Assembly (NCBI GenBank): GCA_964616145.1
Contig: CAZTRD010000001.1
Coordinates: forward strand, 68,024-132,023
Length of the DNA: 64,000 nucleotides
Origin: an uncultured Candidatus Saccharibacteria bacterium
Lineage (GTDB): Bacteria > Patescibacteriota > Minisyncoccia > Minisyncoccales > PEYH01
Reading direction: 5' to 3'
Numbering within the stretch: position 1 is the first letter of the stretch; every line of letters begins with the position of its first letter. The notes beneath the pieces were generated by a model, which searched no databases, was not told the DNA's origin, and saw only the letters and a list, made by a program, of their open reading frames with translations. The position numbers and the translations under genes were made by a program. Below are positions 8,696 through 58,813 of the stretch, one piece after another.

Positions 8696-8697
8696 AA

Positions 8698-9078
8698 GTG
8701 GAAACCCCGACGGAGCCTATCAACGTCGGGGTACTGCTATTCGCTGGGAAGTATAGCTACCAGCGCGTGAACTCTAGATCTGGCATCAGGTTTCCCTGCT
8801 ATCCCGAACGGTCCCTGTCACCCGCACAGGTTGCACTTCACGCGGACCCGTCTAGGCGTTCCAGATCTATAGGGATGGTATCCTGTACTTTCCTTTGGGG
8901 GTTACCTCCGTCGAGTTCTCGACGGGTTTTTGAGTGAATCATCCCAGGTCCTTTCGGGTCGAGGGACTATCCTCGCATATACCCATCGGTTACAGAATGA
9001 TAGGGCCATCTGTTAAATCTCAATATAAGATCTAACAACTAGCCCTATCGCCATCCTTGAATTCGTATATCAATGTGC
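8698..9078 (-). ncRNA. ~380-nt GC-rich structured RNA, unclassified. It may be a divergent RNase P RNA.
   Basis: Own minus-strand promoter and terminator hairpin (8705-8712/8724-8731, then UUUCCACUUUU on the minus strand). Many GC helices. RNase P-like strings on the minus strand: AAAGGAAAGUAC (8896-8885), CUGGAACGCCUAG, AAGUGCAAC (8838-8830) and GGGUGACAGGG. I could not trace a P4/CR-V pairing. Confidence 0.55.
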
Positions 9079-13596: not shown

Positions 13597-14411
13597 TATT
13601 TGATACTCATGCCCATGTTAATTTCAGGGTTTTTGACAATGATAGGGACGAAGTAATCAAGAAATGCCTGGATAGAGGTATTTCTATCATTAATGTTGGA
13701 AGCAATTTTAATACGTCTGAAATAGCTGTTGATCTGGCTAATCAATATCAAGAAGTATATGCTTCTGTTGGTTTGCATCCGATTCACGTAGATAAGAGCA
13801 TTTTAAGAGTGAAAGATGAAGAAGAGGGTATTAATGAAGAATCCAGTTTTGATTATAACAAATACAAAGAATTAGCTAGGGATAGAAAAGTGGTGGCAAT
13901 TGGAGAAACAGGACTTGATTACTATTACCGTCCCAAAACTAAAACCAAATTAGCAGAATTCAAGGCAAAACAAAAAGAAGTTTTGATAAAACAAGTTGAA
14001 TTAGCAGAAGAATTAAATCTTCCTATCATTTTTCATTGCCGAATGGCTCATGATGATTTGATAGAGTTCTTAAAGGATAAAAAGCTGAGAGGAGTAATAC
14101 ATTGCTTTACCGGGGATTTAAATCAAGCTAAAGAATATATACGAATGGGATACTATTTAGGATTTAATGGAATTATCTTTAAATTGAATCTAGATGAAAT
14201 TATCAAAGAAATCCCGATAGATAGAATTCTTTTAGAAACAGATTGTCCGTATCTTACTCCGTCCGGATATGCTACAGATAGAAATGATCCGATAGGGGTG
14301 GAGTATGTGGCAAAAAGGGTAGCAGAGATTAAAAAGGTAGATCTGACAGAACTTATTAACAAGACGAATGATAATGCGATAAACCTATTCGGATTGGACA
14401 AAATACTATAA
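13593..14411 (+). CDS. tatD: TatD family metal-dependent hydrolase/DNase
   Basis: MIFDTHAHVNF, GETGLDYY, HCR/HCFTG and ETDCPYL motifs. ATGA overlap with metG. Confidence 0.88.
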   Translation: MIFDTHAHVNFRVFDNDRDEVIKKCLDRGISIINVGSNFNTSEIAVDLANQYQEVYASVGLHPIHVDKSILRVKDEEEGINEESSFDYNKYKELARDRKVVAIGETGLDYYYRPKTKTKLAEFKAKQKEVLIKQVELAEELNLPIIFHCRMAHDDLIEFLKDKKLRGVIHCFTGDLNQAKEYIRMGYYLGFNGIIFKLNLDEIIKEIPIDRILLETDCPYLTPSGYATDRNDPIGVEYVAKRVAEIKKVDLTELINKTNDNAINLFGLDKIL

Positions 14412-14456
14412 TTGTGATATCATATAATTACCTGACACCATAAGGAGGTGATTCTA

Positions 14457-14561
14457 ATGAAATGGTGTCCTGAGAAAAGGAAAGCGTTCCCGATCCTTGA
14501 GAGAGTCGGGAATGCGCTCGTTCGTCAGTTCGCCCCTCTCGCTGGCCGGCCTTTGGGCTAG
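14457..14561 (+). CDS. Candidate 34-aa small ORF inside a GC-rich structured island (MKWCPEKRKAFPILERVGNALVRQFAPLAGRPLG)
   Basis: Perfect RBS AAGGAGGTGA 6 nt upstream of the ATG, presented in the loop of hairpin GACACCAT/ATGGTGTC. TATAAT at 14423-14428. The unit could instead be a non-coding RNA. Confidence 0.3.
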   Translation: MKWCPEKRKAFPILERVGNALVRQFAPLAGRPLG

Positions 14562-14592
14562 CCAGCGAGAGGGCATACAACCTAACTATTAT

Positions 14593-14618
14593 AAACAGGT
14601 CTTCCCTGTTTTTGTTTT
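14593..14618 (+). terminator. Intrinsic terminator of the 14.4-kb GC-rich unit
   Basis: AAACAGG-TCTTC-CCTGTTT followed by TTGTTTT. Confidence 0.7.
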
Positions 14619-14668: not shown

Positions 14669-14758
14669 GCCGGGGTGGTGGAAAAGGGCAGACACGCACA
14701 AGTCTTCACGATTGTGTGAGGATGATCCCTCGTGTAGGTTCAAATCCTACCCTCGGCA
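14669..14758 (+). tRNA. Type II (Leu-like) tRNA-like gene with a 10-nt anticodon loop GUCUUCACGA and no encoded CCA
   Basis: Acceptor GCCGGGG/CCTCGGC plus A73. D arm GTG-GAAAAGGGCAGA-CAC. Anticodon stem CACAA/TTGTG (14697-14701/14712-14716). Long variable arm GAGG-ATGATC-CCTC. T arm GTAGG-TTCAAAT-CCTAC. It aligns arm for arm with tRNA-Leu(CAA) at 25554-25640 except in the loop. Confidence 0.6.
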
Positions 14759-14777: not shown

Positions 14778-14847
14778 GGTGACGTAGCTCAATTGGTAGA
14801 GCACTGGGATAAATCCCGGGGGTGGGGTTCGATTCCTCCCGTCACCT
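14778..14847 (+). tRNA. Class I tRNA-like gene (Phe-like body) with a shortened 6-nt (or 4-nt) anticodon loop AUAAAU and no encoded CCA
   Basis: Acceptor GGTGACG/CGTCACC. D arm GCTC-AATTGGTA-GAGC. Stem CTGGG/CCCGG (14804-14808/14815-14819) encloses only ATAAAT. T arm TGGGG-TTCGATT-CCTCC. Total body is 69 nt. Confidence 0.55.
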
Positions 14848-17802: not shown

Positions 17803-20800
17803 ATGTGCGGAATTGTAGGATATATTGGTAAAAAAGAAGCATTGCCCATCATTATTGATGGGCTTAAGCGCCTTGAATACCGCGGATATGATTCTGCCGG
17901 TGTTGTTGTATTAGAGAAACAAGCATCCTTGGTTAAAGTAAAAGGAAGAGTAAAGGATTTAACTGATAAATTAGATGGTCAAAAGATTTTAGGAAGTTGT
18001 GGTATTGGGCATTGTTTGCCACCAAACGTTTTAATTCAGTTGGCTGATGGCAGAATTCTAGAGATTTCAAAAATTACAGATAAAGATAAAATTTTATGCT
18101 TAAATCCAAAGACATTAAAATTTGTGCCTGGGAAGGTCAAGGTTTTTAAGCACGAATCGCCAGATTATATTTATAATATCAAAACAAAGTCAGGCTTTTT
18201 AAATGCGACTGCTGCTCACAAGATGCTTATTTTCTCTGATGGAATTATTCAGAATAAAGTTGTTAAAGATATAAGGAAGGGAGATTTATTAATTTTTCCC
18301 AAACAAATAGAGATAACTGGTAAAAAGATAAATTTCCAAAAGTGTTTTGCCAAAAGATATTATGAGCTTAGCGATAGAGCTGTGGACATGATTAGGTCTG
18401 CCATAAAAGAGAAATCGTTAACCTTGTCCGAACTAGGCCGTAAGATAAAAATTAGCGATAAATATTTACGTCATATCATCAATAATGATCGAAATATCCG
18501 AGAAGATTACCTCAAAAAGATTTTATTTCACCTAAACGTCTTTTTTGATAAAAAAGAATTTGTTCCTGTAGACACGATCCATGGAAAGTTTATAAAACTT
18601 CCAGCTCAAAGCTCGGAGAAATTAATGCAGATTTTAGGATATCTTCTGGGAGATGGCACGGTTCAACCCAAGACAATAAGGTTTAAAGATTTAAATAAGC
18701 AATTATTACAACATTATCAAGGCCTTATAAATAAGGTATTCAATGTAAGGGGAAGGGTGGTATCTCAGAAAGATACTGCTGCATACCTATTAGAAGTTAA
18801 CAGTCAATATTTATCTCGTTGGCTTAAAGTTAATATTATCGACAGAAGTGATGATTTTTTTGGAGAAATCGGGAAACTACCCAACAAAGAAATAGCAGCA
18901 TTTCTAAGAGGATTATTCGATGCAGAGGGGTGCGTTAGTTTGCAATCTAAACAAATAACCCTCAGAATGACAAATCAACGATTAGTAAAAACTGTCCAGA
19001 TGCTATTGCCGCGTTTTAATATTTTATGCTCTTTCACGAAAACAACAAGAAAAAATAAAAATTGGTCAGATGTTTTTAATATCTCTATTAATAATTTCGA
19101 TGGTACTAAAAAATTCCTAGATATTGTGAGGGTTTCTTCACAAGAAAAGCTAAAAAGATGTAAGGCAATTGTAAAACAGATGGAGTTAGATCAATTAAAT
19201 TTTTCTTTTAAATATCTACCCTTTACCAAGAAAGAAATATACGAAAGATATATAAATCCTTTGAAAATTCCGCACGGGAAAATAAAAAAGTTGCTGGGAA
19301 ACGCAAACAATGATTTTCTCACTGGCAAAAAATTCAAAGAGTTGATAGATTATATTATAAAGAATTATCCCGATAAGAAGATAGAAAAAGAGCTCAAAAT
19401 GTTTTCTGAGGGAAATATTGTATTTCAGCCAGCGCAAGAGATCAAGAAAATCAAATCACAGAACAAATACTTGTTTGATATAGAAGTTTCTCCACATGCT
19501 AATTTTATTGCAGATGGTTTTCTAACTCATAATAGTAGATGGGCGACTCATGGAGAACCATCAGAGGTTAATGCTCATCCTCATTTCGATTGTAAAAAAG
19601 AGATATTTGTGGTTCATAATGGAATACTTGAAAACTACGTTTCTCTTAAAGAGAAATTAATAGAGAAAGGACATAAATTTGTATCTGAAACAGATACAGA
19701 AGTTATCGCCCATTTAATAGAGGAATTCTTTGATGGAAATTTAGAAGATGCTTTAAGACGAGCATTAAAAGAAATGGTTGGGGCCTATGCTATTGCGGTA
19801 GTTTCTATAAAAGATCCTGGGAAAATAGTTTTTGCTAAAAAATCCAGTCCATTATTGGTTGGTATCGGCGAAGGAGAAAACTTTATCGCTTCTGATGCGC
19901 CAGCCATATTAGGGAATACAAAAAAGGTAATATATTTAGAAGACAATGAATTGGGAGTAATTACTGCCAATGATTTTAAAATCATTGATTTAGAAAATAA
20001 TAGAATAGAAAAAAAGATTTCTCTTTTGGAATGGGACCTAGAGGAAGCAGAGAAAAAGGGATATCCTCATTTCATGTTTAAAGAAATAATAGAAGAAGGG
20101 GATGCAGTTAGGAATGCTTTAAGAGGAAGAATCCTTCCAGAAGAAGGAGCTATCAAATTTGGAGGATTAGAAGATATAGAAGAAAAATTAAGAAATGTTG
20201 AGAGGATTACAATTATTGCTATGGGGACAGCATATCTGGCAGGATTTGTTGGCAAGTACATGTTAGAAGAATATGCTCAAATGCCTGTTATGTTAGAGAA
20301 TGCATCTGAATTTAGATACAAAAAATCAATTATTGATAAGAATTCAGTAGTAATTGCAGTTTCTCAATCTGGAGAAACTGCAGATACTCTTTTTGCTGTG
20401 AAAGAGGCAAAAAGACAAGGAGCTTTAACCCTGGGCATTATTAACGTGGTAGGTTCCAGTATAGCTAGAGAAGTGGACGCCGGGATATATAACCATGCGG
20501 GACCAGAGATAGGAGTGGCCTCAACTAAGGCCTTTATCTCCGAGTTAGCCGTGTTTGCCCTACTATCTGTATTCTTGGGTAGACAAAGAGGCATGTCTCC
20601 TGTAATGGGCAAAAGAATCATCCAGGAGCTTAACGAGATCCCATCCTTGATAGGGGGCATATTTAAACAAGAAGATAGGATAAAAGAACTAGCTAAGAAG
20701 TACTATAAACATGAAGATTTCTTCTATTTAGGAAGGAAATACAATTATCCTATTGCCTTAGAGGGAGCATTAAAATTAAAGGAAATTTCATATATCCATG

Positions 20801-21147
20801 CAGAAGGATATCAGGCAGGAGAAATGAAGCATGGCCCAATTGCCATGATTGATGAGAATTTCCCTTCAGTTTGTATTGTCCCCAAGGATAGTGTCTATGA
20901 AAAGAATTTCTCTGGCATTCAAGAAATTAAAGCAAGAAAAGGATTAGTAATTGCTATTACTACAGAGGGGAATGATGAATTAGATAACATTGCAGATGAT
21001 GTTTTGTTTATCCCAAAAACTTTAGAAATGTTAACTCCTTTAGTTTCTGTAATTCCTTTACAGCTTTTTGCGTATCATGTGGCTGTGTTGAGGGGGAATG
21101 ATGTAGACAAGCCAAGAAATTTGGCTAAGTCGGTTACCGTGGAATAA
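17803..21147 (+). CDS. glmS: Glutamine--fructose-6-phosphate aminotransferase, intein-containing precursor
   Basis: N-terminal MCGIVGY (catalytic Cys2). Two SIS domains and a C-terminal KPRNLAKSVTVE. The exteins sum to 607 aa once the insert is removed. Confidence 0.93.
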   Translation: MCGIVGYIGKKEALPIIIDGLKRLEYRGYDSAGVVVLEKQASLVKVKGRVKDLTDKLDGQKILGSCGIGHCLPPNVLIQLADGRILEISKITDKDKILCLNPKTLKFVPGKVKVFKHESPDYIYNIKTKSGFLNATAAHKMLIFSDGIIQNKVVKDIRKGDLLIFPKQIEITGKKINFQKCFAKRYYELSDRAVDMIRSAIKEKSLTLSELGRKIKISDKYLRHIINNDRNIREDYLKKILFHLNVFFDKKEFVPVDTIHGKFIKLPAQSSEKLMQILGYLLGDGTVQPKTIRFKDLNKQLLQHYQGLINKVFNVRGRVVSQKDTAAYLLEVNSQYLSRWLKVNIIDRSDDFFGEIGKLPNKEIAAFLRGLFDAEGCVSLQSKQITLRMTNQRLVKTVQMLLPRFNILCSFTKTTRKNKNWSDVFNISINNFDGTKKFLDIVRVSSQEKLKRCKAIVKQMELDQLNFSFKYLPFTKKEIYERYINPLKIPHGKIKKLLGNANNDFLTGKKFKELIDYIIKNYPDKKIEKELKMFSEGNIVFQPAQEIKKIKSQNKYLFDIEVSPHANFIADGFLTHNSRWATHGEPSEVNAHPHFDCKKEIFVVHNGILENYVSLKEKLIEKGHKFVSETDTEVIAHLIEEFFDGNLEDALRRALKEMVGAYAIAVVSIKDPGKIVFAKKSSPLLVGIGEGENFIASDAPAILGNTKKVIYLEDNELGVITANDFKIIDLENNRIEKKISLLEWDLEEAEKKGYPHFMFKEIIEEGDAVRNALRGRILPEEGAIKFGGLEDIEEKLRNVERITIIAMGTAYLAGFVGKYMLEEYAQMPVMLENASEFRYKKSIIDKNSVVIAVSQSGETADTLFAVKEAKRQGALTLGIINVVGSSIAREVDAGIYNHAGPEIGVASTKAFISELAVFALLSVFLGRQRGMSPVMGKRIIQELNEIPSLIGGIFKQEDRIKELAKKYYKHEDFFYLGRKYNYPIALEGALKLKEISYIHAEGYQAGEMKHGPIAMIDENFPSVCIVPKDSVYEKNFSGIQEIKARKGLVIAITTEGNDELDNIADDVLFIPKTLEMLTPLVSVIPLQLFAYHVAVLRGNDVDKPRNLAKSVTVE
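18013..19533 (+). mobile_element. Intein (507 aa) with a LAGLIDADG homing-endonuclease domain, inside GlmS
   Basis: It interrupts the conserved GIGH|(S)RWATHG motif. It starts with Cys (CLPPNVLIQL) and ends ...LTHN followed by Ser+1. Block B-like TAAH. Two LAGLIDADG motifs (LGYLLGDGTV, LRGLFDAEGCV). Confidence 0.88.
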
Positions 21148-29070: not shown

Positions 29071-29200
29071 AATTTCTTTATGTTTCTATTATATCAAAAC
29101 ATGGATTGACTACAAAATGCAATTGTTATAACATTTCTTTTAGTAGGCAAGAATGGTTCTTGCCAATTCGCAAACTTGCGAGAAAGGGTGGGTGAAAGTT

Positions 29201-29605
29201 ATGGAAGAAAAGAGCGTTCTTCAGTTGTATTCGATTCTCCTGCTCCATCCTGAAGTTCTGGATCCGCTGAAGCACTTGGGGCTGCCTCGGGATATCAAGC
29301 CCGAAGATCTGATCAGCTGCCTTGAGCTGTATCAGAGGATAGGGAAGTCCTATCAAGAACTTGTTCCTGAGGGAGATGACGGGGAGAGCGAAAGATTGAG
29401 GCTAGTTCACGATCTTCTCGAAGAGCTCTCAGGATGTTTCACCGAGCTGTCTGGCAACTTCGGGCCAAGGCCTATTCACAGGATCCGAAGAGCCATCCAG
29501 TGGTGGTGGCATCTTCATCTTCACGAGAATCTCCCCGGAGCGAAGATCGACGATCCCTACTTCATGGGGCCCAAGCATCTCAAACTGGATCCGGAGCGGG
29601 GATAG
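29201..29605 (+). CDS. GC-rich hypothetical protein (134 aa, acidic, helical-looking), island gene
   Basis: Preceded by TTGACT (29106-29111) with a TAACAT/TATAAC -10, two leader hairpins, and an SD-like AAAGGGTGGGTGA 5 nt before the ATG. Followed by a strong terminator. Composition differs sharply from flanking genes. Confidence 0.5.
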   Translation: MEEKSVLQLYSILLLHPEVLDPLKHLGLPRDIKPEDLISCLELYQRIGKSYQELVPEGDDGESERLRLVHDLLEELSGCFTELSGNFGPRPIHRIRRAIQWWWHLHLHENLPGAKIDDPYFMGPKHLKLDPERG

Positions 29606-29626
29606 GAGCAGTTCGCGAGTTTGGAC

Positions 29627-29668
29627 GGGCTGCTGTTCGACGGACCAGCAGCCCACTTCTTTTGTTTG
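29627..29668 (+). terminator. Intrinsic terminator of the 29-kb island gene
   Basis: GGGCTGCTG-10 nt-CAGCAGCCC followed by ACTTCTTTTGTTTG. Confidence 0.7.
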
Positions 29669-29684
29669 CTAAATATCCAAAAGG

Positions 29685-38792: not shown

Positions 38793-38821
38793 TTGACGAA
38801 TACAATATAGTATGCTATGGT
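38793..38821 (+). promoter_or_regulatory. Promoter of the 38.8-kb GC-rich island (TTGACG-17 nt-TATGGT)
   Basis: Good -35/-10 spacing immediately after the comEC stop. Confidence 0.5.
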
Positions 38822-38852
38822 ATGGATACATGGGGGAGAGGAGGATGGTATC

Positions 38853-39056
38853 ATGCCCAGAGGACAAGGAAACAAATCCAAGCCGGGCCCCAAGAAGCCG
38901 CCCGACAAGCTATTGATCTACATCCCGCAGTCGAAGGTTGCGCGGCAACCTGTCGAGCGGCTGATGAAGATCGGCGCGAAAAAGGATCGGTCCGTCAGCT
39001 ACCTCGTCGTCGAGGCCATTCTGCAGTACCTCGACCGTGAGGAGAACAAGTCGTAG
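38853..39056 (+). CDS. Ribbon-helix-helix (CopG/Arc-like) DNA-binding protein, 67 aa, GC-rich island gene
   Basis: SD GAGGAGGA 7 nt before the ATG. Lys/Pro-rich tail, then a beta-strand (LLIYIP) and two helices (VERLMKIGAKK, SVSYLVVEAILQYLDRE). Confidence 0.65.
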   Translation: MPRGQGNKSKPGPKKPPDKLLIYIPQSKVARQPVERLMKIGAKKDRSVSYLVVEAILQYLDREENKS

Positions 39057-39088
39057 CTCGTGAGAGCTACAAGAAAGGAGGTGGTCTC

Positions 39089-39109
39089 ATGAAGACGGGG
39101 CCGCCGTAA
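39089..39109 (+). CDS. Candidate 6-codon mini-ORF MKTGPP-stop
   Basis: Perfect RBS AAAGGAGGTG 6 nt upstream. It ends in Pro-Pro-stop. It lies between two hairpins and the island terminator. Confidence 0.25.
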   Translation: MKTGPP

Positions 39110-39140
39110 CAAGCTGTACATTGGAGAGATCAGGCTCTCC

Positions 39141-39186
39141 GGGGGACCGGTGCCCGCATGCACTTCAGGTCCCCCTCATCTTTTTT
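39141..39186 (+). terminator. Intrinsic terminator of the 38.8-kb island
   Basis: GGGGGACC-19 nt-GGTCCCCC followed by TCATCTTTTTT. Confidence 0.7.
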
Positions 39187-39230
39187 AAATCAAGAAACTC
39201 TGATAGAATTCAATATATTAAACAATAACA

Positions 39231-46677: not shown

Positions 46678-49335
46678 ATGTTCTCAAATCCAGGAGGCGA
46701 ATTTACATATAAAGCGCAGGAAGCTGTGATGAAAGCTCAGGATTTTGCCAGGCGCTTAAACCAGCAGCAAGTTGATGCTTTGCATCTGGTATACATTCTT
46801 GTAAGCCAAGAAGGGACTTTGGTTGCAACTCTATTGCGCAAATTAGGTATTGATATTGAAGAAGTAAAAAGATTGGTTGCTTCTTCAATTAATCGCATTC
46901 CCCGCAACCAGGAATTTGCCAATCCGGCTCAATTCTACCTTACTCAAGATCTGGCAAGAGTGATAGAAAGAGCAAAACAGGAGGCGATGAAAATGGAAGA
47001 TGAATTCATTTCAACTGAGCATTTCTTGCTTGCTTTGCTTGATGTTCCATCAGAAGCAAGAAATATTTTAGATAAATATGTTTCCAAAGGACTGATATAT
47101 GAAAATGTTTTCAAGATGCTGGAAGAATTGAGAGGAGGAGAAAAAATTACCGATCCAAATCCAGAAACAAAATATCAGATAATAGAAAAATATACTAGGA
47201 ATCTAACCAAGGTTGCCAAATTGGGGAAATTGGATCCTGTGATTGGCAGAGAAAACGAAATCAGAAGAGTAATCCAGGTTCTTTCCAGAAGAACCAAAAA
47301 CAATCCGGTTTTGATAGGAGAGGCAGGAGTTGGGAAAACCGCTATTGTAGAAGGATTGGCCCAGAGAATAGTCAGGGGAGATATCCCTGAGAGCTTAAAA
47401 ACCAAAGAAATTATTTCTCTAGATTTAGGTTTGTTGATAGCCGGAACAAAATTCAGGGGAGAATTTGAACAAAGATTAAAATCTTTGGTGAAAGAAATTG
47501 AAAAAGCGCAGGGCCACTATATTCTTTTCATTGATGAATTGCATACTGTTATCGGAGCAGGAGCTGCAGAAGGAGCGATAGACGCTTCTAATCTTTTAAA
47601 GCCGGCTCTGTCTAGGGGACAATTAAAGGCAATAGGGGCCACTACTTTAAAAGAATATCAGAAGTATATAGAAAAAGATCCGGCTCTTGAAAGAAGATTT
47701 ATGCCTGTATATGTTTCAGAACCTTCCGTAGAAGACACCATTTCTATCCTTAGGGGTATTAAGGAAAAATATGAACTGCATCATGGAGTGAAAATCAAGG
47801 ACTCTGCCCTGATTGCCGCAGCAGAATTAGCAACAAGATATATTACAGACAGATTCCTGCCTGATAAAGCAATAGATCTCTTGGATGAAGCCGCTTCTTC
47901 TTTAAGATTGGAAATTGAATCAGAGCCTATCCAGATAGAAGATCTGAAAAAAGAAATTCAGAGGTATGAGATAGAAAAGGAAGCGCTGAAAAAAGAAAAT
48001 GACGCTAAAAGCAAACAGCGACTAACTGCTTGCCAGAGAAGTTTAGCAGACCTGAAAGAAAAATTAAAAGACCTTGATTTAAAATGGCAGACAGAAAAAA
48101 ATCTTTTAAAAACGATAGGGGAGGTAAGCAAACAATTAGAACAATTGAATTTTGAAGCAGAAATGGCTCAAAGAGAGGGAAATCTGGAAAAAGTAGCGGA
48201 GATAAAATACGCAAAGATTCCAGAGCTCTCAAAACAAAAAAATTCTTCAGAATCAGAGCTTACAAAATTCAGAAAGAAGCATCGGCTGTTAAAAGAAGAA
48301 GTTAATGAAGAAGATATAGCCAGAGTTGTTTCCAGATGGACCGGTATACCGATAATGCGCTTGATAGAAGATGAAGCCAAGAAGCTGTATAACATGGAAG
48401 AGGCGGTGCAGAAACGCGTGATAGGGCAAAATGAGGCGATAAAAGCCATTGCCAATGCTATCAGAAGAAGCAGGGCAGGAATATCAGAAGAAGACAAACC
48501 TACTGGTTCCTTCATGTTTTTAGGACCTACTGGAGTTGGGAAAACAGAAACCGCCAAGGCCTTGGCTGAATTTCTGTTCAATGATGAAAATGCTTTGGTC
48601 AGATTAGATATGTCTGAATATATGGAAAGGCACACGGTATCCAAGATGATTGGTTCTCCTCCAGGATATGTCGGATACGAGGAAGGGGGCCAGCTTACAG
48701 AACTCATCAGAAGAAGACCGTATAGTGTTGTTCTATTAGACGAGATAGAGAAAGCTCATCCGGATGTATTCAATATACTATTACAGATTCTTGATGATGG
48801 GAGATTAACAGATGCAAAAGGAAGGAAAGTATCTTTCAAAAATACCATCATTATTATGACTTCTAATGTTGGCTCTGACTATATTTCTAATATGGCTCCC
48901 TTGGGATTTGTTACCAAAGCCCAGGAGAAGAGAGAATCTTTGAAGGATAAGATAATGGAAACATTGAAAGAAAGATTCAGGCCGGAATTCATTAATAGAA
49001 TTGATGAGATTATCATCTTTAACTATCTTTCCCAAGAAGAGATTAGAAAGATTGTTGATTTGGAATTGAATAAAGTGACTAGTCGTTTGATGAAGAACGG
49101 AATAGGATTCAGAACAACAGAAAAAGCAAAATCGCTGTTGGTTAAAAAGGGATTTGATCAGAATCTTGGAGCCAGGCCCTTGAAGAGAACAATACAGAAA
49201 TTAATTCTTGATCCATTGGCTTTAAAGATTGTTTCCAGCGATATGAAGGACGGAGCGAATATTTTAATAGATGCTGATGATGGAAAAATGATATTTAAAT
49301 TCACTAAACAAGCTTCAAAAAAGAAAAAGAAATGA
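46678..49335 (+). CDS. clpB: ATP-dependent chaperone ClpB
   Basis: Clp N domain, two AAA+ modules ([18 protein letters not shown]), a long middle coiled-coil. 885 aa. Confidence 0.94.
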
Positions 49336-49337
49336 GG

Positions 49338-49360
49338 AAAAGGGGTGGTTGGCCCCTTTT
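49338..49360. terminator. Bidirectional intrinsic terminator (clpB on +, island unit 3 on -)
   Basis: AAAGGGG-TGGTTGG-CCCCTTTT with A/T runs on both sides. Confidence 0.7.
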
Positions 49361-49425
49361 CTGTTTGAGAGGTCGGTATGTACGAGCTTGTTAATCCCTG
49401 CACCTCCTTTAAAGGTACTGCTTGC

Positions 49426-49536
49426 CTAACGCCCAGAACGCTGACAAACGATAAGCCAGGAAGTTCGTGGTCTTGGTAAGATGTGCCACCAATTCCATCT
49501 TCTTGGCCGCCGCTGCCTGCTTCTGGTCCTTTTCAT
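49426..49536 (-). CDS. Candidate 36-aa Arg/Trp-rich small ORF (MKRTRSRQRRPRRWNWWHILPRPRTSWLIVCQRSGR), island unit 3
   Basis: Perfect RBS AAGGAGGG (49550-49543) 7 nt before ATG 49536-49534. TATAAT at 49570-49565. An overlapping frame also encodes MELVAHLTKTTNFLAYRLSAFWALGKQYL. The coding status of both is unproven. Confidence 0.25.
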   Translation of the reverse strand: MKRTRSRQRRPRRWNWWHILPRPRTSWLIVCQRSGR

Positions 49537-49586
49537 CTGTGTCCCTCCTTACGGGTAGGTGTTTATTATATATCATAGTTTCTAGT

Positions 49587-49795
49587 AAAAAACAAAGAAA
49601 CCGACCAGAGAATGGTCGGGAAAGAGCATGTGTCAAGGATGGAGACCGCGGTGGTATCGTTAGTTCTCCTCCGCGGCCTCACATCCTCTCCGCAAGGACA
49701 CAAGCAAACCTTGCGGTCTAACAACCCCTCGCCTCTTTCCCTCTCGCCCGTGAGAGGGTCATCTAGTGGAGGGGTAGGGTCTTACTTGTTGTTAT
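49587..49795 (-). ncRNA. GC-rich structured transcript, ~200 nt, unclassified (island unit 2)
   Basis: Minus-strand hairpins CCCTCTC-ACGGGC-GAGAGGG, CCGCAAGG-11 nt-CCTTGCGG and GGCCGCGG-19 nt-CCGCGGTC nested in AGGATG/CATCCT. It ends in terminator CCGACCA-TTCTC-TGGTCGG-TTTCTTTGTTTTTT (49620-49587). The 5' end is uncertain. Confidence 0.45.
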
Positions 49796-49825
49796 CTTCT
49801 ACCTACTTCTATGATTTGTCAATGT

Positions 49826-50006
49826 TTTAAAAGCAAAAGAGCCGACCACGAATGTGATCGGTTCTCGGTTGGCGCCCGTAAGGGCAAAGAACATGAGCGG
49901 ATAGGTCCGCCACCTGGAGGAGCTGCCGAAGCAGCCCCTCCTAAGTGGTTTAGTCGTGCGCCCCCGCACGGCCAACTCCCCTCTCTGCCATAGAGAAAGG
50001 AAGGTC
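49826..50006 (-). ncRNA. GC-rich structured transcript, ~180 nt, unclassified (island unit 1)
   Basis: Multi-stem junction closed by GTTGGC/GCCAAC. It contains GTGCG-GGGG-CGCAC, an 11-bp GGAGGGGCTGC-TTCG-GCAGCTCCTCC, CGGA-CCTA-TCCG and GCCC-TTAC-GGGC. Terminator CCGATCAC-ATTC-GTGGTCGG-CTCTTTTGCTTTT (49861-49826). Confidence 0.5.
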
Positions 50007-50012
50007 ATTATT

Positions 50013-50042
50013 ATTTTACTATCTTTGTTTACTTACAGTCAA
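50013..50042 (-). promoter_or_regulatory. Promoter of island unit 1 (TTGACT-18 nt-TAAAAT)
   Basis: Minus-strand -35 at 50042-50037 and -10 at 50018-50013. Confidence 0.5.
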
Positions 50043-53700: not shown

Positions 53701-55333
53701 CGGGTTCAGCACGTTTTTGGACCCAGGAGAATATATTTTCAAAAACCTTACAATAACCGACAATTCTACAATAACTCTTAAAGGGAATTGTAATGATGAT
53801 CTGGGAGTGAAATTAATTGTCAAAAATTTAACAATTGAAAGCGGTTCTTCAATTTCTGCCAATAGTCAAGGTTGTCCGAGCGGGTCAGGAGATGGAGCAG
53901 GATATTTTGGCAGTGGCGGTGGCTATGGAGGGAGAGGGGCTGGAGATAATAGCATAGAAGGACAAGATTCATATTATGGAGATGGTGGTTTAACTTATGG
54001 CGATATTATTCTGCCATCAAATCTTGGTTCTGGAGGAGGTGGATTGGGCGGACTTGCCGGAGGAACAGGCGGGGGAGTTATTGTTATAGAGGCAGAAGAA
54101 AAGATAATGATTGACGGATTAATATCTGCAGATGGGCAGAGTATTAATGGAAAAACCGGTGGTGGAAGCGGAGGAAGTATATACCTTACAGCTAATGAGA
54201 TAACCGGTTCTGGAATGATAACGGCTAATGGAGGAAGTACAACTGGAGGGGCTGGCGGCGGAGGAAGAATAGCTATCTATTACAATACGCTAGGTGTTTC
54301 TGATATTCAGACATATGGAGGAAATCAAACCATCGGTCAATTTGATGGAGCTGCCGGAACTATATTTTTAAAAAACAATACCCAAAACAGAGGAGAATTG
54401 ATTATTAAGAATAATAATCTGGATGGATTAACCCAGACAGTAATAGATAATAATTTAGTTTTGAAGAATTTTGAGATAGGAGCCAATAGTAGAATTTCCT
54501 TTTTGGGAAACAGCATAGATTCTAATGATATATCAATATCTTCCAAGGGAGTTTTACTGTTTGAAGACGATGTTTCAATCACGACTGATAATCTGGTTGT
54601 ATGGGGAGAAGGAAATATTATCAATCTTCTAGGAAAAACAACTGGAATCAAAGGAGGCGATATTACTATTAAAGATAAAGCAAAGATTCAGAGCAATGTT
54701 TTAATGCTGGCGGATAATTTAAATATCTATGCAGAGTCTTTTTTAAGCGCTGATAAAAAAGGGTATTTACCAAGCCAAGGGCCTGGAGCTGGGAAATTAG
54801 GTAGTGGTGGTGGTTACGGAGGAAGAGGCGGGGGAGATGAACCAGATCAGGATGCCAGTGTGTATGCCGAGAAAGGAGAATCGTACGGGGATTTTAGGTT
54901 ACCAAATGAATATGGCTCTGGCGGAGGAACCTATGCCGGATACGGAGGATATGGAGGAGGAATGCTGAAATTAGAAGTGAAGAATATTTCGCTTAACGGA
55001 ACTATTTCTTCAAATGGAGGAGAAGGGATAAAACTAAATTATGGATATGGAGGTGGCGGCGGATCCGGAGGTTCAATAGTTATTAAAACAGAAAATATTT
55101 CTGGAACAGGAGAAATTACTGCTAATGGAGCATCTCAGGAATTTTCTTGTACTGGCGGTGGGGGAAGAATAGCCATCTATTACAAGTCAAAAGATTCTTT
55201 TATGGGGAAATTGAAATCCCTCGGAGGCACAAAATTAAATATAGGCAATCCTCTTTTTATAGGAGAATCTGGCACAGTTTATCTGCAACAAATGGATGCT
55301 ACAGAGGGGGAACTGAAATTTGGAGAAGTGTAA
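50744..55333 (+). CDS. Giant secreted protein (1529 aa) with a signal peptide, coiled-coil, three lamin-tail-domain (LTD)-like modules and two glycine-rich beta-helix-like modules
   Basis: Signal peptide ...VFNVLAEDD. LTD-like starts are ISEICSG..SEFVEIFNP (about 51925), ISEIKNKG..DDFIELFNP (about 52531) and ISEVKLGKTEYVEIFNP (about 53095). Duplicated modules GSGGGYGGRG.GD...GGGGRIAIYY lie at about 53860-54390 and 54750-55300. Confidence 0.8.
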   Translation: MKNTRRLKNVFLVVFLFSVFPVFNVLAEDDLLLSNYDANFILNRLPAVITDQWIDSIVQAKSGKEQAAIVILKQASQQRTFNYLLEQAPKEVVKEVARVGWQIYNIGSGSELHEIIGSFEKETANEAVNYLLKVIKEQKLKISFGDFEAEYQTIDEALLKTKFQYIIIYKPVTETQGLVTIRIYSPNNLTPPKSKGDPWSGAINYTWFSDSEIENSKIVPPFIAQINGSMERKKSGYWQKDVIHEYSFSGSPNLTITFPETVPKLEFPKEGWLGKILSAAKDKLQTIAELLGANLVKEEELKPQNESSTSTMSFEEELAQKIAELEKKYNEANADSKTTISELNKLKKDMTTLLKQFANLAGSKEKEQPEGQDAEAGDSKEAVIEKPEADTKEFKLVISEICSGMDNSKSEFVEIFNPNDFAVNINDENFSLWIVDSKDKPTQKRITWTRNNIPAKGYFLFAGSELFFSGLKFDADAYYSNQITSTGGVIISQKSGEDFDKAGWGKLSSPAPETSIEGEGKVLENGLESGISIVRKMFGQGYIDTDNNERDFETSHFPSPKNSLNQESVYYPKSQYNFPSSPTFSNPSSNSQIVSPKILISEIKNKGENSSDDFIELFNPNDQDANLQGWQLKKKTSSGTESSIILFGENQIIKSKQYLVWASTKDGYNQIIQADASSSAYLADNNSVALLDKEKQIIDAVAWQESINPFVEGNYFDSSHEKDQSIGRKKDGQSYTDSNNNATDFEIQTSTPKLINQKYPIVIPPENQEPDEEPGNTETQCLASGIIISEVKLGKTEYVEIFNPTLQAVNLSKCFLSYFSALNDWNDPSRNWEFADNLSISSRQHFLIGIYADPINILNFDWQVQSSSGNNYASQQLSQNGAIGVFSCDPSSQLDSSSAKNCKVDAVGWDSSLVKEENNTEPSPEEKSMARIIDPDEIGQLAYKDTNDNNQDFEIQDPTPRTFSDHDFTDLDNDGLLDVKDINVTIGFSTFLDPGEYIFKNLTITDNSTITLKGNCNDDLGVKLIVKNLTIESGSSISANSQGCPSGSGDGAGYFGSGGGYGGRGAGDNSIEGQDSYYGDGGLTYGDIILPSNLGSGGGGLGGLAGGTGGGVIVIEAEEKIMIDGLISADGQSINGKTGGGSGGSIYLTANEITGSGMITANGGSTTGGAGGGGRIAIYYNTLGVSDIQTYGGNQTIGQFDGAAGTIFLKNNTQNRGELIIKNNNLDGLTQTVIDNNLVLKNFEIGANSRISFLGNSIDSNDISISSKGVLLFEDDVSITTDNLVVWGEGNIINLLGKTTGIKGGDITIKDKAKIQSNVLMLADNLNIYAESFLSADKKGYLPSQGPGAGKLGSGGGYGGRGGGDEPDQDASVYAEKGESYGDFRLPNEYGSGGGTYAGYGGYGGGMLKLEVKNISLNGTISSNGGEGIKLNYGYGGGGGSGGSIVIKTENISGTGEITANGASQEFSCTGGGGRIAIYYKSKDSFMGKLKSLGGTKLNIGNPLFIGESGTVYLQQMDATEGELKFGEV

Positions 55334-55351
55334 AATATATTTACATTGATA

Positions 55352-55380
55352 TTGACAATATATTTTACATGATATATATT
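55352..55380 (+). promoter_or_regulatory. Promoter of the TA pair (TTGACA-17 nt-TATATT), predicting a leaderless or near-leaderless mRNA
   Basis: The -10 ends 6 nt before ATG 55387. Confidence 0.5.
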
Positions 55381-55386
55381 AGAGGC

Positions 55387-56160
55387 ATGACCTCTGAATT
55401 TATACAAAAACTTAGGAAGGAGCAAGGATTGACACAAGAGTTTTTAGCATTAGAACTAGGTGTTTCTAGGCCAACCTATATCCAGATAGAGAAAGGAAAA
55501 AGAGAGTTAAATATATCTGAAGCCAAGAAACTCGCTTCGATTTTTAGCGTTTCTTTAAATGATTTTTTAGCCAATGAGTTACCTAAGCGCAATGTAATTC
55601 TAGAAAAAGAAAAAACGAAAGTACAAAATAGTTCCAAGATTGAAATACGTGTTACAAAAAAGAACTTGAATAAATTTAAGCAAGTTTTATTATATGTTTT
55701 AGAAAAAGTCGGCGGAAAGCTAAATTTTGGAGAAACAGTTCTGCACAAACTTCTCTATTTTATCGATTTTGACTACTACGAAAAATTTGAAGAAAATCTG
55801 ATGGGAGCAACATATATCAAAAATCATCATGGGCCTACATCTATCGAACTAGGAACAATATTAAAAGATATGCAGAAAAATGGAGAGATTGAAGCAGTAA
55901 ATAGTCGTTATTTTAAATATGATCAAAAAAAGTATTTACCCTTGAAACATCCAGATTTGCAACATCTCTCTGCTAGAGAGATAGGCCACATCGATGAAGT
56001 ATTATTTCGCTTGAGCGATAAGAATGCCAAGGAGATAGAGAATTATTCTCACGAAGATATTCCCTGGAAAACCGCCAAAGAGGGCCAGCCAATTTCTTAT
56101 GAAAGCGTATTTTACCGCGATGAGAGATATTCTGTAAGAAACTATAGCGATGAAATTTAG
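55387..56160 (+). CDS. Xre-type HTH fused to a Panacea (DUF4065/SocA-like) domain, a putative PanA-type antitoxin
   Basis: HTH: LRKEQGLTQEFLALELGVSRPTYIQIEKGKRE. Panacea-like: ETVLHKLLYFIDFDYY....G..Y....HGP and ...EIENYSHEDIPW. The tracked upstream extension overlaps the giant gene and is rejected. Confidence 0.75.
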   Translation: MTSEFIQKLRKEQGLTQEFLALELGVSRPTYIQIEKGKRELNISEAKKLASIFSVSLNDFLANELPKRNVILEKEKTKVQNSSKIEIRVTKKNLNKFKQVLLYVLEKVGGKLNFGETVLHKLLYFIDFDYYEKFEENLMGATYIKNHHGPTSIELGTILKDMQKNGEIEAVNSRYFKYDQKKYLPLKHPDLQHLSAREIGHIDEVLFRLSDKNAKEIENYSHEDIPWKTAKEGQPISYESVFYRDERYSVRNYSDEI

Positions 56161-56479
56161 CGAACTTCCACAATTCATTAAAGAATTCCAGCGTTTAGCA
56201 AAAAAATATAGATCTTTGCCAAACGACCTTAAAGAATTTAAGAAGGTTATTGAGGTTATCCCCCTAGGGAATAGTAAGCATTTCAATATTATAACTAAAA
56301 ACGATAAATGCGCCGTTATTAAGGCGCGTTTATTCTGTAAATATTTAAAGGGATCATCCTTAAGAGTTGTTTATGCCTACCATTATCAGAATGATACAAC
56401 TGATTTTATCGAAATATATTTCAAAGGAGAAAAAGTTAATGAAAATGCAGGAAGGATTAAAGAATATCTAGAAAAGTGA
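56150..56479 (+). CDS. Putative toxin, RelE/ParE-superfamily-like (109 aa)
   Basis: 11-nt overlap with the antitoxin gene. Pattern ...KARL......SLRVVYAY......DFIEIYFKGEKVNE resembles RelE/HigB-type toxins. Assigned by eye only. Confidence 0.5.
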   Translation: MKFSELPQFIKEFQRLAKKYRSLPNDLKEFKKVIEVIPLGNSKHFNIITKNDKCAVIKARLFCKYLKGSSLRVVYAYHYQNDTTDFIEIYFKGEKVNENAGRIKEYLEK

Positions 56480-56486
56480 AGGTCTA

Positions 56487-56515
56487 TTGACTAGAATAAA
56501 TAATGGTATTATACT
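56487..56515 (+). promoter_or_regulatory. Promoter (TTGACT-17 nt-TATACT) followed by a 7-bp inverted repeat TGGTCAA-12 nt-TTGACCA
   Basis: Consensus-like hexamers. The inverted repeat lies between the -10 and the ATPase start codon. Confidence 0.5.
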
Positions 56516-56565
56516 AACCGTACTGGTCAAGAATCAGCTATTTTGACCACTACAATATAAATAAT

Positions 56566-57831
56566 ATGCTTAAAGATGTAGTTTTGCGTCAGAAAAAGGA
56601 AAAAGAAGATTTTATAAAACCTCAATACATAGAAAGGACCCAAGATGTTTTGGGAAAGAAATGGCTAGATTCCAATCTTATCAAAGTTATTCTAGGCCCT
56701 CGTCGCGCAGGAAAATCAATCTTCTCTCTTATGCTCTTGAAAGATCGTTCTTTCGCCTATTTTAATTTTGATGATGAAATTCTTACAAGCTCAAAAGGAA
56801 TATCTACAGATGAATTAATGAAAGAATTGCACGCCGTCTATGGGGATACAAAAAATATTTTCTTTGATGAAATTCAAAACTTACCAAATTGGGAATTGTT
56901 TGTAAATAGATTACATAGAGAAGGATATAATCTAATTCTAACTGGTTCGAATGCAAAATTACTTTCTAAAGAATTAGCTACTACTTTAACCGGTAGATAT
57001 ATTCCCATAGAAATATTACCATTCAATTTTAAGGAATTCTTGCGTGCCAAGGGTTTTATAATAGAGAACAATCTTTTACCTCAGAAGCACGGGGAGCTTT
57101 TGAAACTGATGGAAGAATATCTCATAAACGGAGGATTTCCAGAGGTTATTGTAAAGAAACTAGACTCCAAGGAATATTTAGATGTTCTTTTTGACTCGGT
57201 TTTATTTAAAGACGTGGTTAAAAGATACAAGGTAAGGTTCTCAGTTCAGATAGGAAATCTTGGCTCCCATCTCGTTAACAGTTTTTCTTCTCTTTATAGC
57301 TTAAGAAAGCTACAAGATATTCTAGGGCTAAAGAGTGTTACCACGGTAGAGAAATACACTAAATACCTAGAAGAAGCTTATTTAATATTTTCATTATTAC
57401 GCTATTCTCCGAAATCGCTGCAACGAATCAGGTCTCCTAAAAAGGTTTATGTCGTAGATAATGGTTTTATCGGCGCAAAAGCCATTCAGCATTCACCAGA
57501 TAAAGGAAAGTTAATGGAAAACTTAGTTTTTTTGGAGTTAATAAAAAGAGGATTAGAGCCCAACCATGATATTTTCTATTTTAAGACTAAGACCGGCAAA
57601 GAAATAGATTTTGTTATCAAGAATGAGACAGTTGTCTCTCAGTTAATTCAATCTTCTTACGATATAGAAAATCAAGACACTGAAAAAAGAGAAATTAGTG
57701 CCCTGCAAGAAGCCAGCAGAGAATTAAAAACAAAAGATGTTTTAATTTTAACTTGGGACACGGAAAAAGAGATAAAGGAAAACAATTTAACTATAAAATT
57801 TCAACCGATATGGAAATGGATGATGGAATGA
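56566..57831 (+). CDS. AAA+ ATPase of the AAA_14/DUF4143 type
   Basis: Walker A GPRRAGKS, Walker B IFFDEIQ, C-terminal DUF4143-like region (KVYVVDNG). Confidence 0.8.
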   Translation: MLKDVVLRQKKEKEDFIKPQYIERTQDVLGKKWLDSNLIKVILGPRRAGKSIFSLMLLKDRSFAYFNFDDEILTSSKGISTDELMKELHAVYGDTKNIFFDEIQNLPNWELFVNRLHREGYNLILTGSNAKLLSKELATTLTGRYIPIEILPFNFKEFLRAKGFIIENNLLPQKHGELLKLMEEYLINGGFPEVIVKKLDSKEYLDVLFDSVLFKDVVKRYKVRFSVQIGNLGSHLVNSFSSLYSLRKLQDILGLKSVTTVEKYTKYLEEAYLIFSLLRYSPKSLQRIRSPKKVYVVDNGFIGAKAIQHSPDKGKLMENLVFLELIKRGLEPNHDIFYFKTKTGKEIDFVIKNETVVSQLIQSSYDIENQDTEKREISALQEASRELKTKDVLILTWDTEKEIKENNLTIKFQPIWKWMME

Positions 57832-58006
57832 ATTGATCGACCTATATAGAGGATCCCGGCATCATTTGTGCATAGTAACTAAATATGGCAAAAGGAAGGA
57901 TAGGGCCTGGAGATATAATGATATTTGTCATCCTTCAATAAAGTACCATTTCGTTGTACTATGATGGTGTTTTTTGCTTAGGTTGAAGTAAAGAGAAAGG
58001 AGAAGA

Positions 58007-58117
58007 ATGGACCTGGATCTCAATCTCGCGATGGATGGTTGGTGGGCTTTGATCAGGGTTTCCCTGTTCTTTGCCTCTGCCTGGCTGGGTTGGAAGGAGG
58101 TGAACTACCGCTCCTGA
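58007..58117 (+). CDS. Candidate 36-aa hydrophobic small protein (MDLDLNLAMDGWWALIRVSLFFASAWLGWKEVNYRS), GC-rich island
   Basis: RBS AAAGGAGA 5 nt upstream. One predicted TM helix flanked by Trp residues. A strong terminator follows directly. Confidence 0.35.
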   Translation: MDLDLNLAMDGWWALIRVSLFFASAWLGWKEVNYRS

Positions 58118-58133
58118 CATCTATTGCTTCACC

Positions 58134-58166
58134 GAGAAAGGCTACCGCTGGTAGCCCTTCTCTTTT
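58134..58166 (+). terminator. Intrinsic terminator of the 58-kb island
   Basis: GAGAAAGGCTACC-GCT-GGTAGCCCTTCTC followed by TTTT. Confidence 0.7.
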
Positions 58167-58193
58167 AATATAAAAAGGACATTCATTTGTCCT
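58166..58193 (-). terminator. Intrinsic terminator of the minus-strand gene 58274-58813
   Basis: Minus strand reads AGGACA-AATGAA-TGTCCT followed by TTTTTATATT. Confidence 0.6.
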
Positions 58194-58273
58194 AATTCTT
58201 TGTCCACAGTTTTATTCTATTAAAATCCTCTCGCAAATTATTTGCGATGCGGAACAAGTATTTTATCTTTCTA

Positions 58274-58813
58274 TTACTCTACGAGTAGAAGTAGAGAAGA
58301 AATATTATTTAACTGAGCATCTGTAAGCTGTAATGCGGAATCAATAGCTTTTTCAATTAAGTTTTTTGAGAAACTAATTTTTTCTCCGACTTGCAATCCA
58401 TAATCGCCAATAGTATTTTGCAAGTAATCCTCAATGTATGTTTTATGAGCGCGAGTTAACAAAGAAGCATTCTGCCCGTGTTCATTTAAATACTGATTCA
58501 TCGCTTTTCTGGCCAAATGAGTAATTCCATCTCCTGATTGTGCAGTTTCTGTAAAGATATTGGTTTCTACAAAATCTTCGTCTTCTATTTCTGTTTCTTC
58601 TTTAGTTACTTTATCCTCGCTTGAAGTGGTTATTTCTTCCTCATCTAACAAATCTATTATGCTTGCATTTTCCGCCTGAGGGAACACTTGTCCTATGGGT
58701 TCTCTGTAAATATATATTAATACTCCTACAGCGATCAGAGTAAACAAGAATACCCATGTCCAATATTCTTTTTTGAAAGTAATTTTAGGAATACGAATCT
58801 TCGGAAGTTTCAT
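58274..58813 (-). CDS. Hypothetical membrane-anchored protein (179 aa)
   Basis: N-terminal TM segment, an acidic linker, and a conserved-looking C-terminal domain. Confidence 0.6.
   Translation of the reverse strand: MKLPKIRIPKITFKKEYWTWVFLFTLIAVGVLIYIYREPIGQVFPQAENASIIDLLDEEEITTSSEDKVTKEETEIEDEDFVETNIFTETAQSGDGITHLARKAMNQYLNEHGQNASLLTRAHKTYIEDYLQNTIGDYGLQVGEKISFSKNLIEKAIDSALQLTDAQLNNISSLLLLVE

Follow-up and report, generated by a model that had tools for sequence, protein, structure and literature searches.

What is a short GC-rich island doing at the end of a defense cassette in an AT-rich genome? The stretch of DNA analyzed here ("the window"; 64,000 nucleotides) has a GC content of 0.364 (36%), and the island, at ~57976–58166, reaches 54–56% (0.54 over 58000–58150 versus 0.364 for the whole window). 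The original prediction read it as a small gene for a hydrophobic 36-residue peptide resembling a type I toxin. This raises two questions: whether the 36-codon frame is translated at all and, if it is, whether its product belongs with such toxins.

Layout of the island and of the cassette that carries it

The elements on which the prediction was built are all present, each where it had been placed: a GC-rich stretch, two AT-rich hairpins upstream of it, a Shine-Dalgarno (SD)-like box and an ATG-initiated ORF. Between the last protein gene of the cassette and the island lies an AT-rich spacer (57832–57975, plus strand) with two weak hairpins, one formed by GAAGGAT (57895–57901) and ATCCTTC (57930–57936) and the other by ACCAT (57945–57949) and ATGGT (57964–57968), the latter followed by a run of six T (57970–57975). 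Neither hairpin was called as a terminator in a terminator scan. The SD-like string AAAGGAGA (57996–58003, plus strand) leaves 4 nt between its GGAG and the ATG of the 36-codon ORF MDLDLNLAMDGWWALIRVSLFFASAWLGWKEVNYRS (58007–58117, plus strand; GC3 0.75), and the rise in GC begins at this ATG. The ORF contains tandem Trp codons (TGG TGG, 58040–58045) and two further Trp codons. The SD-like string that had been noticed in its 3′ part was recovered as GGAAGGAGGTGA (58092–58103, plus strand), and the last 10 nt of this string (58094–58103) can pair without a mismatch with the canonical 16S 3′ end. There is no start codon at a usable distance after them, and this second, much stronger SD, which leads into no ORF, looks like decay.

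The stop codon lies 17 nt 5′ of an intrinsic terminator, GAGAAAGGCTACC-GCT-GGTAGCCCTTCTC-TTTT (58134–58166, plus strand; −18.2 kcal/mol); the cassette has no other strong one. This terminator had been credited with a 13-bp stem; the terminator itself stands, and the 13 stem positions consist of 12 pairs and one A·C mismatch. The compact architecture described earlier (SD-like box, ATG, 36 codons and a stop just before a strong terminator) is borne out and is what one would expect of a small gene. A simple consensus scan of both strands from 57500 to 58500 returned no promoter-like site, in agreement with the earlier remark that no antisense promoter was obvious; by eye, the minus strand offers only a weak TTAGGA-17-TATATT.

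A 2.83-kb segment (about 55331–58163), of which the island forms the final 160 nt, is missing from the closest available relative, the Candidatus Paceibacterota genome STA_67 (locus L003), which has 10 nt (TATAATCTAG) in place of the whole segment. Homology to STA_67 ends at ...GGAGAAGT (55330) and restarts at TTTAATA (58164), the right-hand break falling at the 3′ end of the terminator hairpin, where the T tract begins. In STA_67, the stop codon of a giant 1529-aa-like gene is followed by the 10 nt and then by the hairpin AGGACAnTCATTTGTCCT, the equivalent of window positions 58176–58193. From this arrangement it follows that ~55331–58163 is either an insertion here or a deletion in the relative. 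In the window, the hairpin AGGACATTCATTTGTCCT (58176–58193, minus strand) is the terminator of a convergent 179-aa gene, and since it is conserved in STA_67, it lies outside the insertion.

At the left edge, a perfect 13-nt inverted repeat, TGTAAAATATATT / AATATATTTTACA (55329–55369), flanks a TTGACA box, and the two together are a probable operator/promoter. The segment has no terminal direct or inverted repeats. Its order is operator/promoter, XRE-Panacea antitoxin, 109-aa partner, ATPase, AT-rich spacer, GC island and terminator; it is a small mobile accessory defense cassette that runs from promoter to terminator. Contigs of a 99.8–100% identical strain in sample ERZ27248953 stop at 57849 and 58216 (loci L030 and L036), on either side of the island; a presence/absence polymorphism, a repeat or a drop in coverage may be the reason.

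The first gene of the cassette (55387–56160, plus strand) encodes a 257-aa antitoxin with an XRE-HTH and a SocA/Panacea (DUF4065) domain (Pfam HTH_3 and SocA_Panacea). We took the ATG at 55387 as its start, the gene caller having chosen 55369; relatives are 255–257 aa long. The second gene (56150–56479, plus strand) overlaps the antitoxin stop and encodes 109 aa with no family match in Pfam, NCBIfam or PADLOC. By its position it is the putative toxin of the Panacea pair, and a gene of 111–117 aa occupies the same position in five of five antitoxin relatives. Antitoxin and ~110-aa partner form a two-gene module that occurs at 70–80% identity in many phyla; in another Paceibacterota lineage, the module lies directly 3′ of a gene for a giant LTD-domain protein (loci L033–L035, 4001–5111). 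The five closest relatives of this pair are complete with the two genes alone; none includes the ATPase, and none has the island beside the antitoxin.

The third gene (56566–57831, plus strand) encodes an AAA_14 + DUF4143 ATPase (Pfam E values of 6e-32 and 2e-22) that matches PDC-S01, a candidate single-gene defense system of PADLOC, at E 4.9e-103. Relatives at 65–74% identity are found in many CPR lineages, and source names point to Bacteroidota and Deltaproteobacteria as well. The gene neighborhood differs each time, and the PDC-S01-type ATPase looks like an often-transferred single gene. We compared 23 metagenome loci (25–70% identity, with 16 full-length at 63–70%) and the two closest relatives (73–74%), and neither the island nor a similar peptide was found beside the ATPase at any of them; in all, the island is absent from 26 of 26 loci with ATPase relatives. 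The island was also considered as an accessory part of the PDC-S01 defense candidate, and this is not supported, for want of co-occurrence with the ATPase relatives.

Coding potential and origin of the 36-codon frame

Whether the SD-like box can work depends on how the host begins translation. Housekeeping genes are spread across the window (LeuRS, ClpB, HtrA, ComEC, Pth and an intein-bearing GlmS), and the host genome is Candidatus Paceibacterota-like; the convergent 179-aa neighbor has an 84% identical relative in STA_67. In the GlmS-like gene (GATase + SIS; 17803–21147), the coding sequence is split by an intein with a LAGLIDADG homing-endonuclease domain. Over the whole window, SD boxes precede only 2 of 48 native gene starts, and many of these 48 starts have a TATAAT-like (−10-like) box 3–10 nt ahead of the ATG. 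The scarcity of SDs and the position of these boxes just before the ATG suggest, from the sequence, widespread leaderless or SD-independent initiation in native genes. In a scan of the window, long perfect SDs were confined to GC-rich islets, and the only two exact copies of AAGGAGGTGA both lie inside such islets. Because native genes use essentially no SD (2/48), the AGGAG box of the island may be inert in this host.

The frame itself was judged against dinucleotide shuffles of the 200-nt island. An ATG-initiated ORF of at least 36 codons arose in 14.6% of shuffles and such an ORF with an upstream SD-like core in 2.2–3.6%; when any start codon was allowed, 34% contained an ORF of this length or longer. 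Three of the six reading frames of the stretch stay open (36, 44 and 53 aa); the 44-aa (plus strand) and 53-aa (minus strand) frames were set aside, as they have no family matches and an unnatural composition. None of the 15 A's in the 36-codon ORF falls at codon position 3, and a position-by-nucleotide chi-square against shuffles gave p ~0.03–0.04. Tests of GC and nucleotide periodicity gave p ~0.01–0.04, and since a control of 53 nt of non-coding DNA downstream was also positive (p = 0.01), the periodicity test is unreliable at such a length. The codon adaptation index of the ORF is 0.39 compared with 0.64–0.78 for host genes, and its composition and codon usage are alien both to the host and to the other three genes of the cassette. 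Codon log-odds did not single out the 36-codon frame, either under a "foreign" model built from two other GC-rich islets of the window (C and D; see below) or under a host model, and none of the gene callers ever predicted it. Taken together, the evidence for coding is modest.

The suggestion that homologs of the peptide be sought came to nothing. A phmmer search against 1.84 billion representatives returned no homolog and a single match, to a 241-aa lectin-like protein in which a SAWLGW motif is repeated five-fold, which we judged to be chance; a padded 41-aa query against 5.8 billion clusters, an exact look-up of the peptide and a tblastn search of plasmids and phages were all empty. Four of five degenerate back-translated patterns had no match in viral contigs, and none of the 16 viral-contig matches of the fifth extends past the seeded heptapeptide DGWWAL[I/F/M]. 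At the DNA level, blastn against phages, plasmids and E. coli genomes was empty, an exact 18-mer of the island was absent from viral contigs, and blastn and nhmmer found no homolog in any of the 36 related loci. The only copies elsewhere are in two other assemblies, both 100% identical. Integron attC core sites (RYYYAAC...GTTRRRY), sought by eye in the long hairpin, were discarded because neither the order nor the sequence of the candidates fits. Beyond these copies the island is an orphan: neither its DNA nor its peptide has a match in the collections searched, and no RNA family fits it.

On balance, we tentatively favor, at somewhat less than an even chance, a mini-cistron of foreign origin at the 3′ end of the accessory defense cassette that is read through from the cassette. 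With no promoter of its own, the island would be expressed through transcription that continues past the ATPase gene; ribosomes would be recruited by the AGGAG box to start at the ATG (58007), the product would be a single-helix, Trp-rich and weakly hydrophobic peptide of 36 residues, and transcription would end at 58166. The simplest guess for its role is a membrane-associated accessory peptide. The segment was probably acquired from a mobile element of higher GC content, an origin that at least one further islet of the window has.

A close rival, nearly as likely as the mini-cistron, is that the island is a non-coding relic: a decayed scrap of foreign DNA, such as the end of a gene or mini-operon that stems from a GC-richer phage or plasmid, which now serves only as a terminator and in which the ORF is there by chance. 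The orphan status of the island is consistent with such a relic, as are a perfect 10-nt SD that no ORF follows and a homology break placed where the terminator hairpin ends and its T tract starts. GC-rich DNA is poor in stop codons, and open frames are frequent in its shuffles under any start codon and three in number here; the missing promoter, a host that does without SDs and the uninformative codon models point the same way. Against it, a GC boundary, an SD-like box, an ATG, a stop and a terminator in succession on one strand come together in only ~2% of shuffles, SD-led ORFs are enriched in the islets as a class, and the wobble position of this frame is free of A.

Other GC-rich islets and the RNA alternatives

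At least seven other GC-rich islets (50–65% GC) occur in the window, all but one of them intergenic and none with an Rfam match. The eight share no sequence beyond 9–11-nt chance words. Four of the eight, the studied island included, contain an ATG ORF of 30 aa or more that is led by an SD (Poisson-binomial P = 0.004 versus shuffles). Very stable folds are predicted for islets B, D, E2 and E3 (z −4.2 to −7.3), and sigma-70-like promoters precede B, D and E3; the studied island has neither.

Two of the islets look, from their sequences, like genuine protein genes. Islet C (29153–29680; GC 52–62%) contains an orphan 150-aa ORF with a GC3 of 0.60 and its own terminator, lies 5′ of a signal peptidase gene and has no Pfam, NCBIfam, PHROG, plasmid or viral match. 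Islet D (38793–39190) comprises a promoter-like site, an Arc/RHH-like 67-aa gene (ATG 38853; GC3 0.81) and a terminator, together with a 6-codon micro-ORF after AAAGGAGGTG. An IMG/VR viral contig (locus L037, 3001–3171) that has 60–65% GC and encodes terminase subunits carries a gene that shares 77% identity with the islet D gene at the DNA level and 70% at the protein level. It follows from this likeness that at least one islet was imported from a GC-rich mobile element.

Further islets were seen along the way. After clpB there is ~700 nt of GC-rich intergenic DNA in all (49335–50042), which falls into three units. The first (49826–50042, minus strand; ~190 nt) has a sigma-70-like promoter, TTGACT-18-TAAAAT (50042–50013), a terminator (49861–49842) and a multi-branched fold with UUCG-type loops (z −7.3; no Rfam match); it is a candidate sRNA, far better supported as an RNA than the studied island. 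A second structured unit lies in tandem (49590–49800, minus strand; z −4.5; terminator 49619–49601), and the third islet (49335–49570) carries a minus-strand, SD-led ORF for 36 aa rich in Arg and Trp (ATG 49536, after TAAGGAGGG). The unit at 14395–14615 (z −6.2; no Rfam match) has a promoter-like TGGACA-17-TATCAT and the string TAAGGAGGTGAT, which is complementary to the canonical 16S 3′ end over 12 nt without a mismatch and is displayed in a hairpin loop together with the ATG of a 34-aa ORF; beyond it lie two very strong hairpins and a terminator. It lies just 5′ of two tRNA genes with abnormal anticodon loops in ARAGORN: a 90-nt gene (14669–14758) with the 4-base anticodon 'ttca', possibly a UCA-reading tRNA of the Sec-like or suppressor type, and an adjoining 70-nt gene (14778–14847) with the 2-base anticodon 'aa'. 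Both exceed the Rfam tRNA threshold. Finally, a 325-nt GC-rich intergenic stretch (8696–9020) has no convincing ORF, no Rfam match and little structure in excess of shuffles (z −1.0 and −1.6).

In AT-rich genomes, GC-rich islands between genes are as a rule RNA genes, and on that pattern the studied island would be a small RNA or a 3′-UTR-derived structured RNA that exposes AAGGAGGUGA as a pairing or ribosome-binding element. A GC-rich island that runs into a Rho-independent terminator would suit such an RNA, several other islets are strongly structured and equipped with promoters and terminators, and the 195-nt stretch including the terminator is more stable than its shuffles (z −2.7 to −3.0). 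Without the terminator, the 157-nt body (57978–58134) is no more stable than its shuffles (z −1.6, with 14 of 200 shuffles as stable), and its predicted closing helix varies with the assumed 5′ end. The AT-rich spacer (57832–57975) folds no better than shuffles (z −0.87). Rfam 15, both at the gathering threshold and at E values up to 10, returned terminator look-alikes only, the weak ctRNA and SraB matches being confined to the terminator hairpin (ctRNA_p42d, 23 bits versus a 50-bit cut-off), and ARAGORN found no tRNA or tmRNA in the island. As the island also has no promoter-like site, unlike islets B, D and E3, we consider the RNA reading unlikely.

A bolder proposal, to which we give a similarly low probability, is that the island is one of at least eight GC-rich mini-units, an undescribed layer of imported mini-genes and sRNAs, and encodes a defense-linked, membrane-active peptide. 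Several of these units would run from promoter to terminator and would carry either long canonical SDs with small ORFs or very stable RNAs, and the peptide of the island would serve, or be silenced by, the adjacent defense cassette.

The island alone matters little, as it is a single-copy, unconserved and only putatively translated 36-codon frame. It does mark the edge of a clean presence/absence polymorphism that involves a Panacea pair and a PDC-S01 ATPase in a CPR bacterium. More noteworthy as a lead is that a CPR genome whose native genes appear to start without SDs has a set of GC-rich islets that do bear them; if these islets are expressed, they would show how a reduced, SD-independent translation system handles imported, SD-dependent mini-genes.

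Comparison with type I toxins and other known systems

The type I proposal holds that the island encodes a membrane toxin silenced by pairing between the 5′ and 3′ parts of its mRNA and by an antisense RNA. The likeness to known type I toxins (Hok/Gef, Ldr, TisB, Fst, Ibs and ShoB) lies in a length below 60 aa with one predicted helix, in the compact SD-ORF-terminator unit, in a location among toxin-antitoxin and defense genes and in a possible SD-hiding fold. AlphaFold models the peptide as one helix (residues 3–35; pLDDT 89.7). The single transmembrane helix that had been predicted stands as a helix; its transmembrane character is marginal, with a best 19-residue Kyte-Doolittle mean of 1.21 (below the threshold of 1.6), Arg17 within that segment and a net charge of −1. 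The corresponding hydropathy values of six type I toxins are 1.67–2.5, which makes the island peptide less hydrophobic as well as net acidic.

The fold that would hide the SD pairs AGGAG (57998–58002) with CUCCU (58111–58115), across the stop codon. It is predicted with a probability of 0.95 for a transcript of 57976–58170, that is, if transcription starts near 57976, and collapses with longer 5′ ends, to 0.35 from 57926 and 0.03 from 57832; the hairpin has a z of −1.6, and in these predictions the silencing structure is not robust. The island also differs from these systems in having, by the consensus scan, neither an antisense RNA gene nor an antisense promoter, no match to any described toxin, or to any other family, in Pfam, NCBIfam, PADLOC or PHROGs, no homologs and no second copy in the window. 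Membership in a type I toxin family, the core of the original prediction, is not supported, and we regard a type I system here as very unlikely.

Least likely, and barely credible, is the relic of a ribosome-mediated attenuator, in which a Trp-codon leader peptide precedes a terminator. The tandem Trp codons and the closeness of the stop to the terminator fit, and a pairing between the Trp-codon region and the terminator's 5′ arm is possible (−13.9 kcal/mol compared with −18.2 for the terminator), but no same-strand gene follows (the next is the convergent 179-aa ORF), 36 codons are long for a leader, Rfam gives no leader match and there is no mutually exclusive antiterminator, the sole alternative pairing using the Trp codons themselves, so that a ribosome stalled on them would cover the putative antiterminator, the opposite of what attenuation requires.

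Three further systems bear comparison with the island. Klein, Misulovin and Eddy reportedly described, in 2002, GC-rich islands in AT-rich genomes as a mark of ncRNAs. The approach was reused in PMC2704228. The island departs from such ncRNA loci in the weak fold of its body (z −1.6) and in having no covariance-model match, promoter or homologs; it resembles them as a sharp intergenic GC peak in an AT-rich genome with a terminator at its end. Panacea (PanA) toxin-antitoxin modules have been described (PMC8832971). The island is not part of the Panacea system, being missing from the five close relatives, and is related to it only through a probable joint transcription unit with the XRE-Panacea antitoxin and its partner.

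The third comparison is with the phage "morons", which Juhala and Hendrix and their respective colleagues are said to have described in 2000 as add-on genes of deviating composition bounded by a promoter and a terminator. The island differs in that no promoter was found for it and in that its host DNA is a Paceibacterota chromosome rather than a prophage. Like a moron, it is a small unit of deviating GC content that ends in a terminator and is tacked onto a mobile gene block, and a GC-rich viral contig carries a close relative of its sister islet D.
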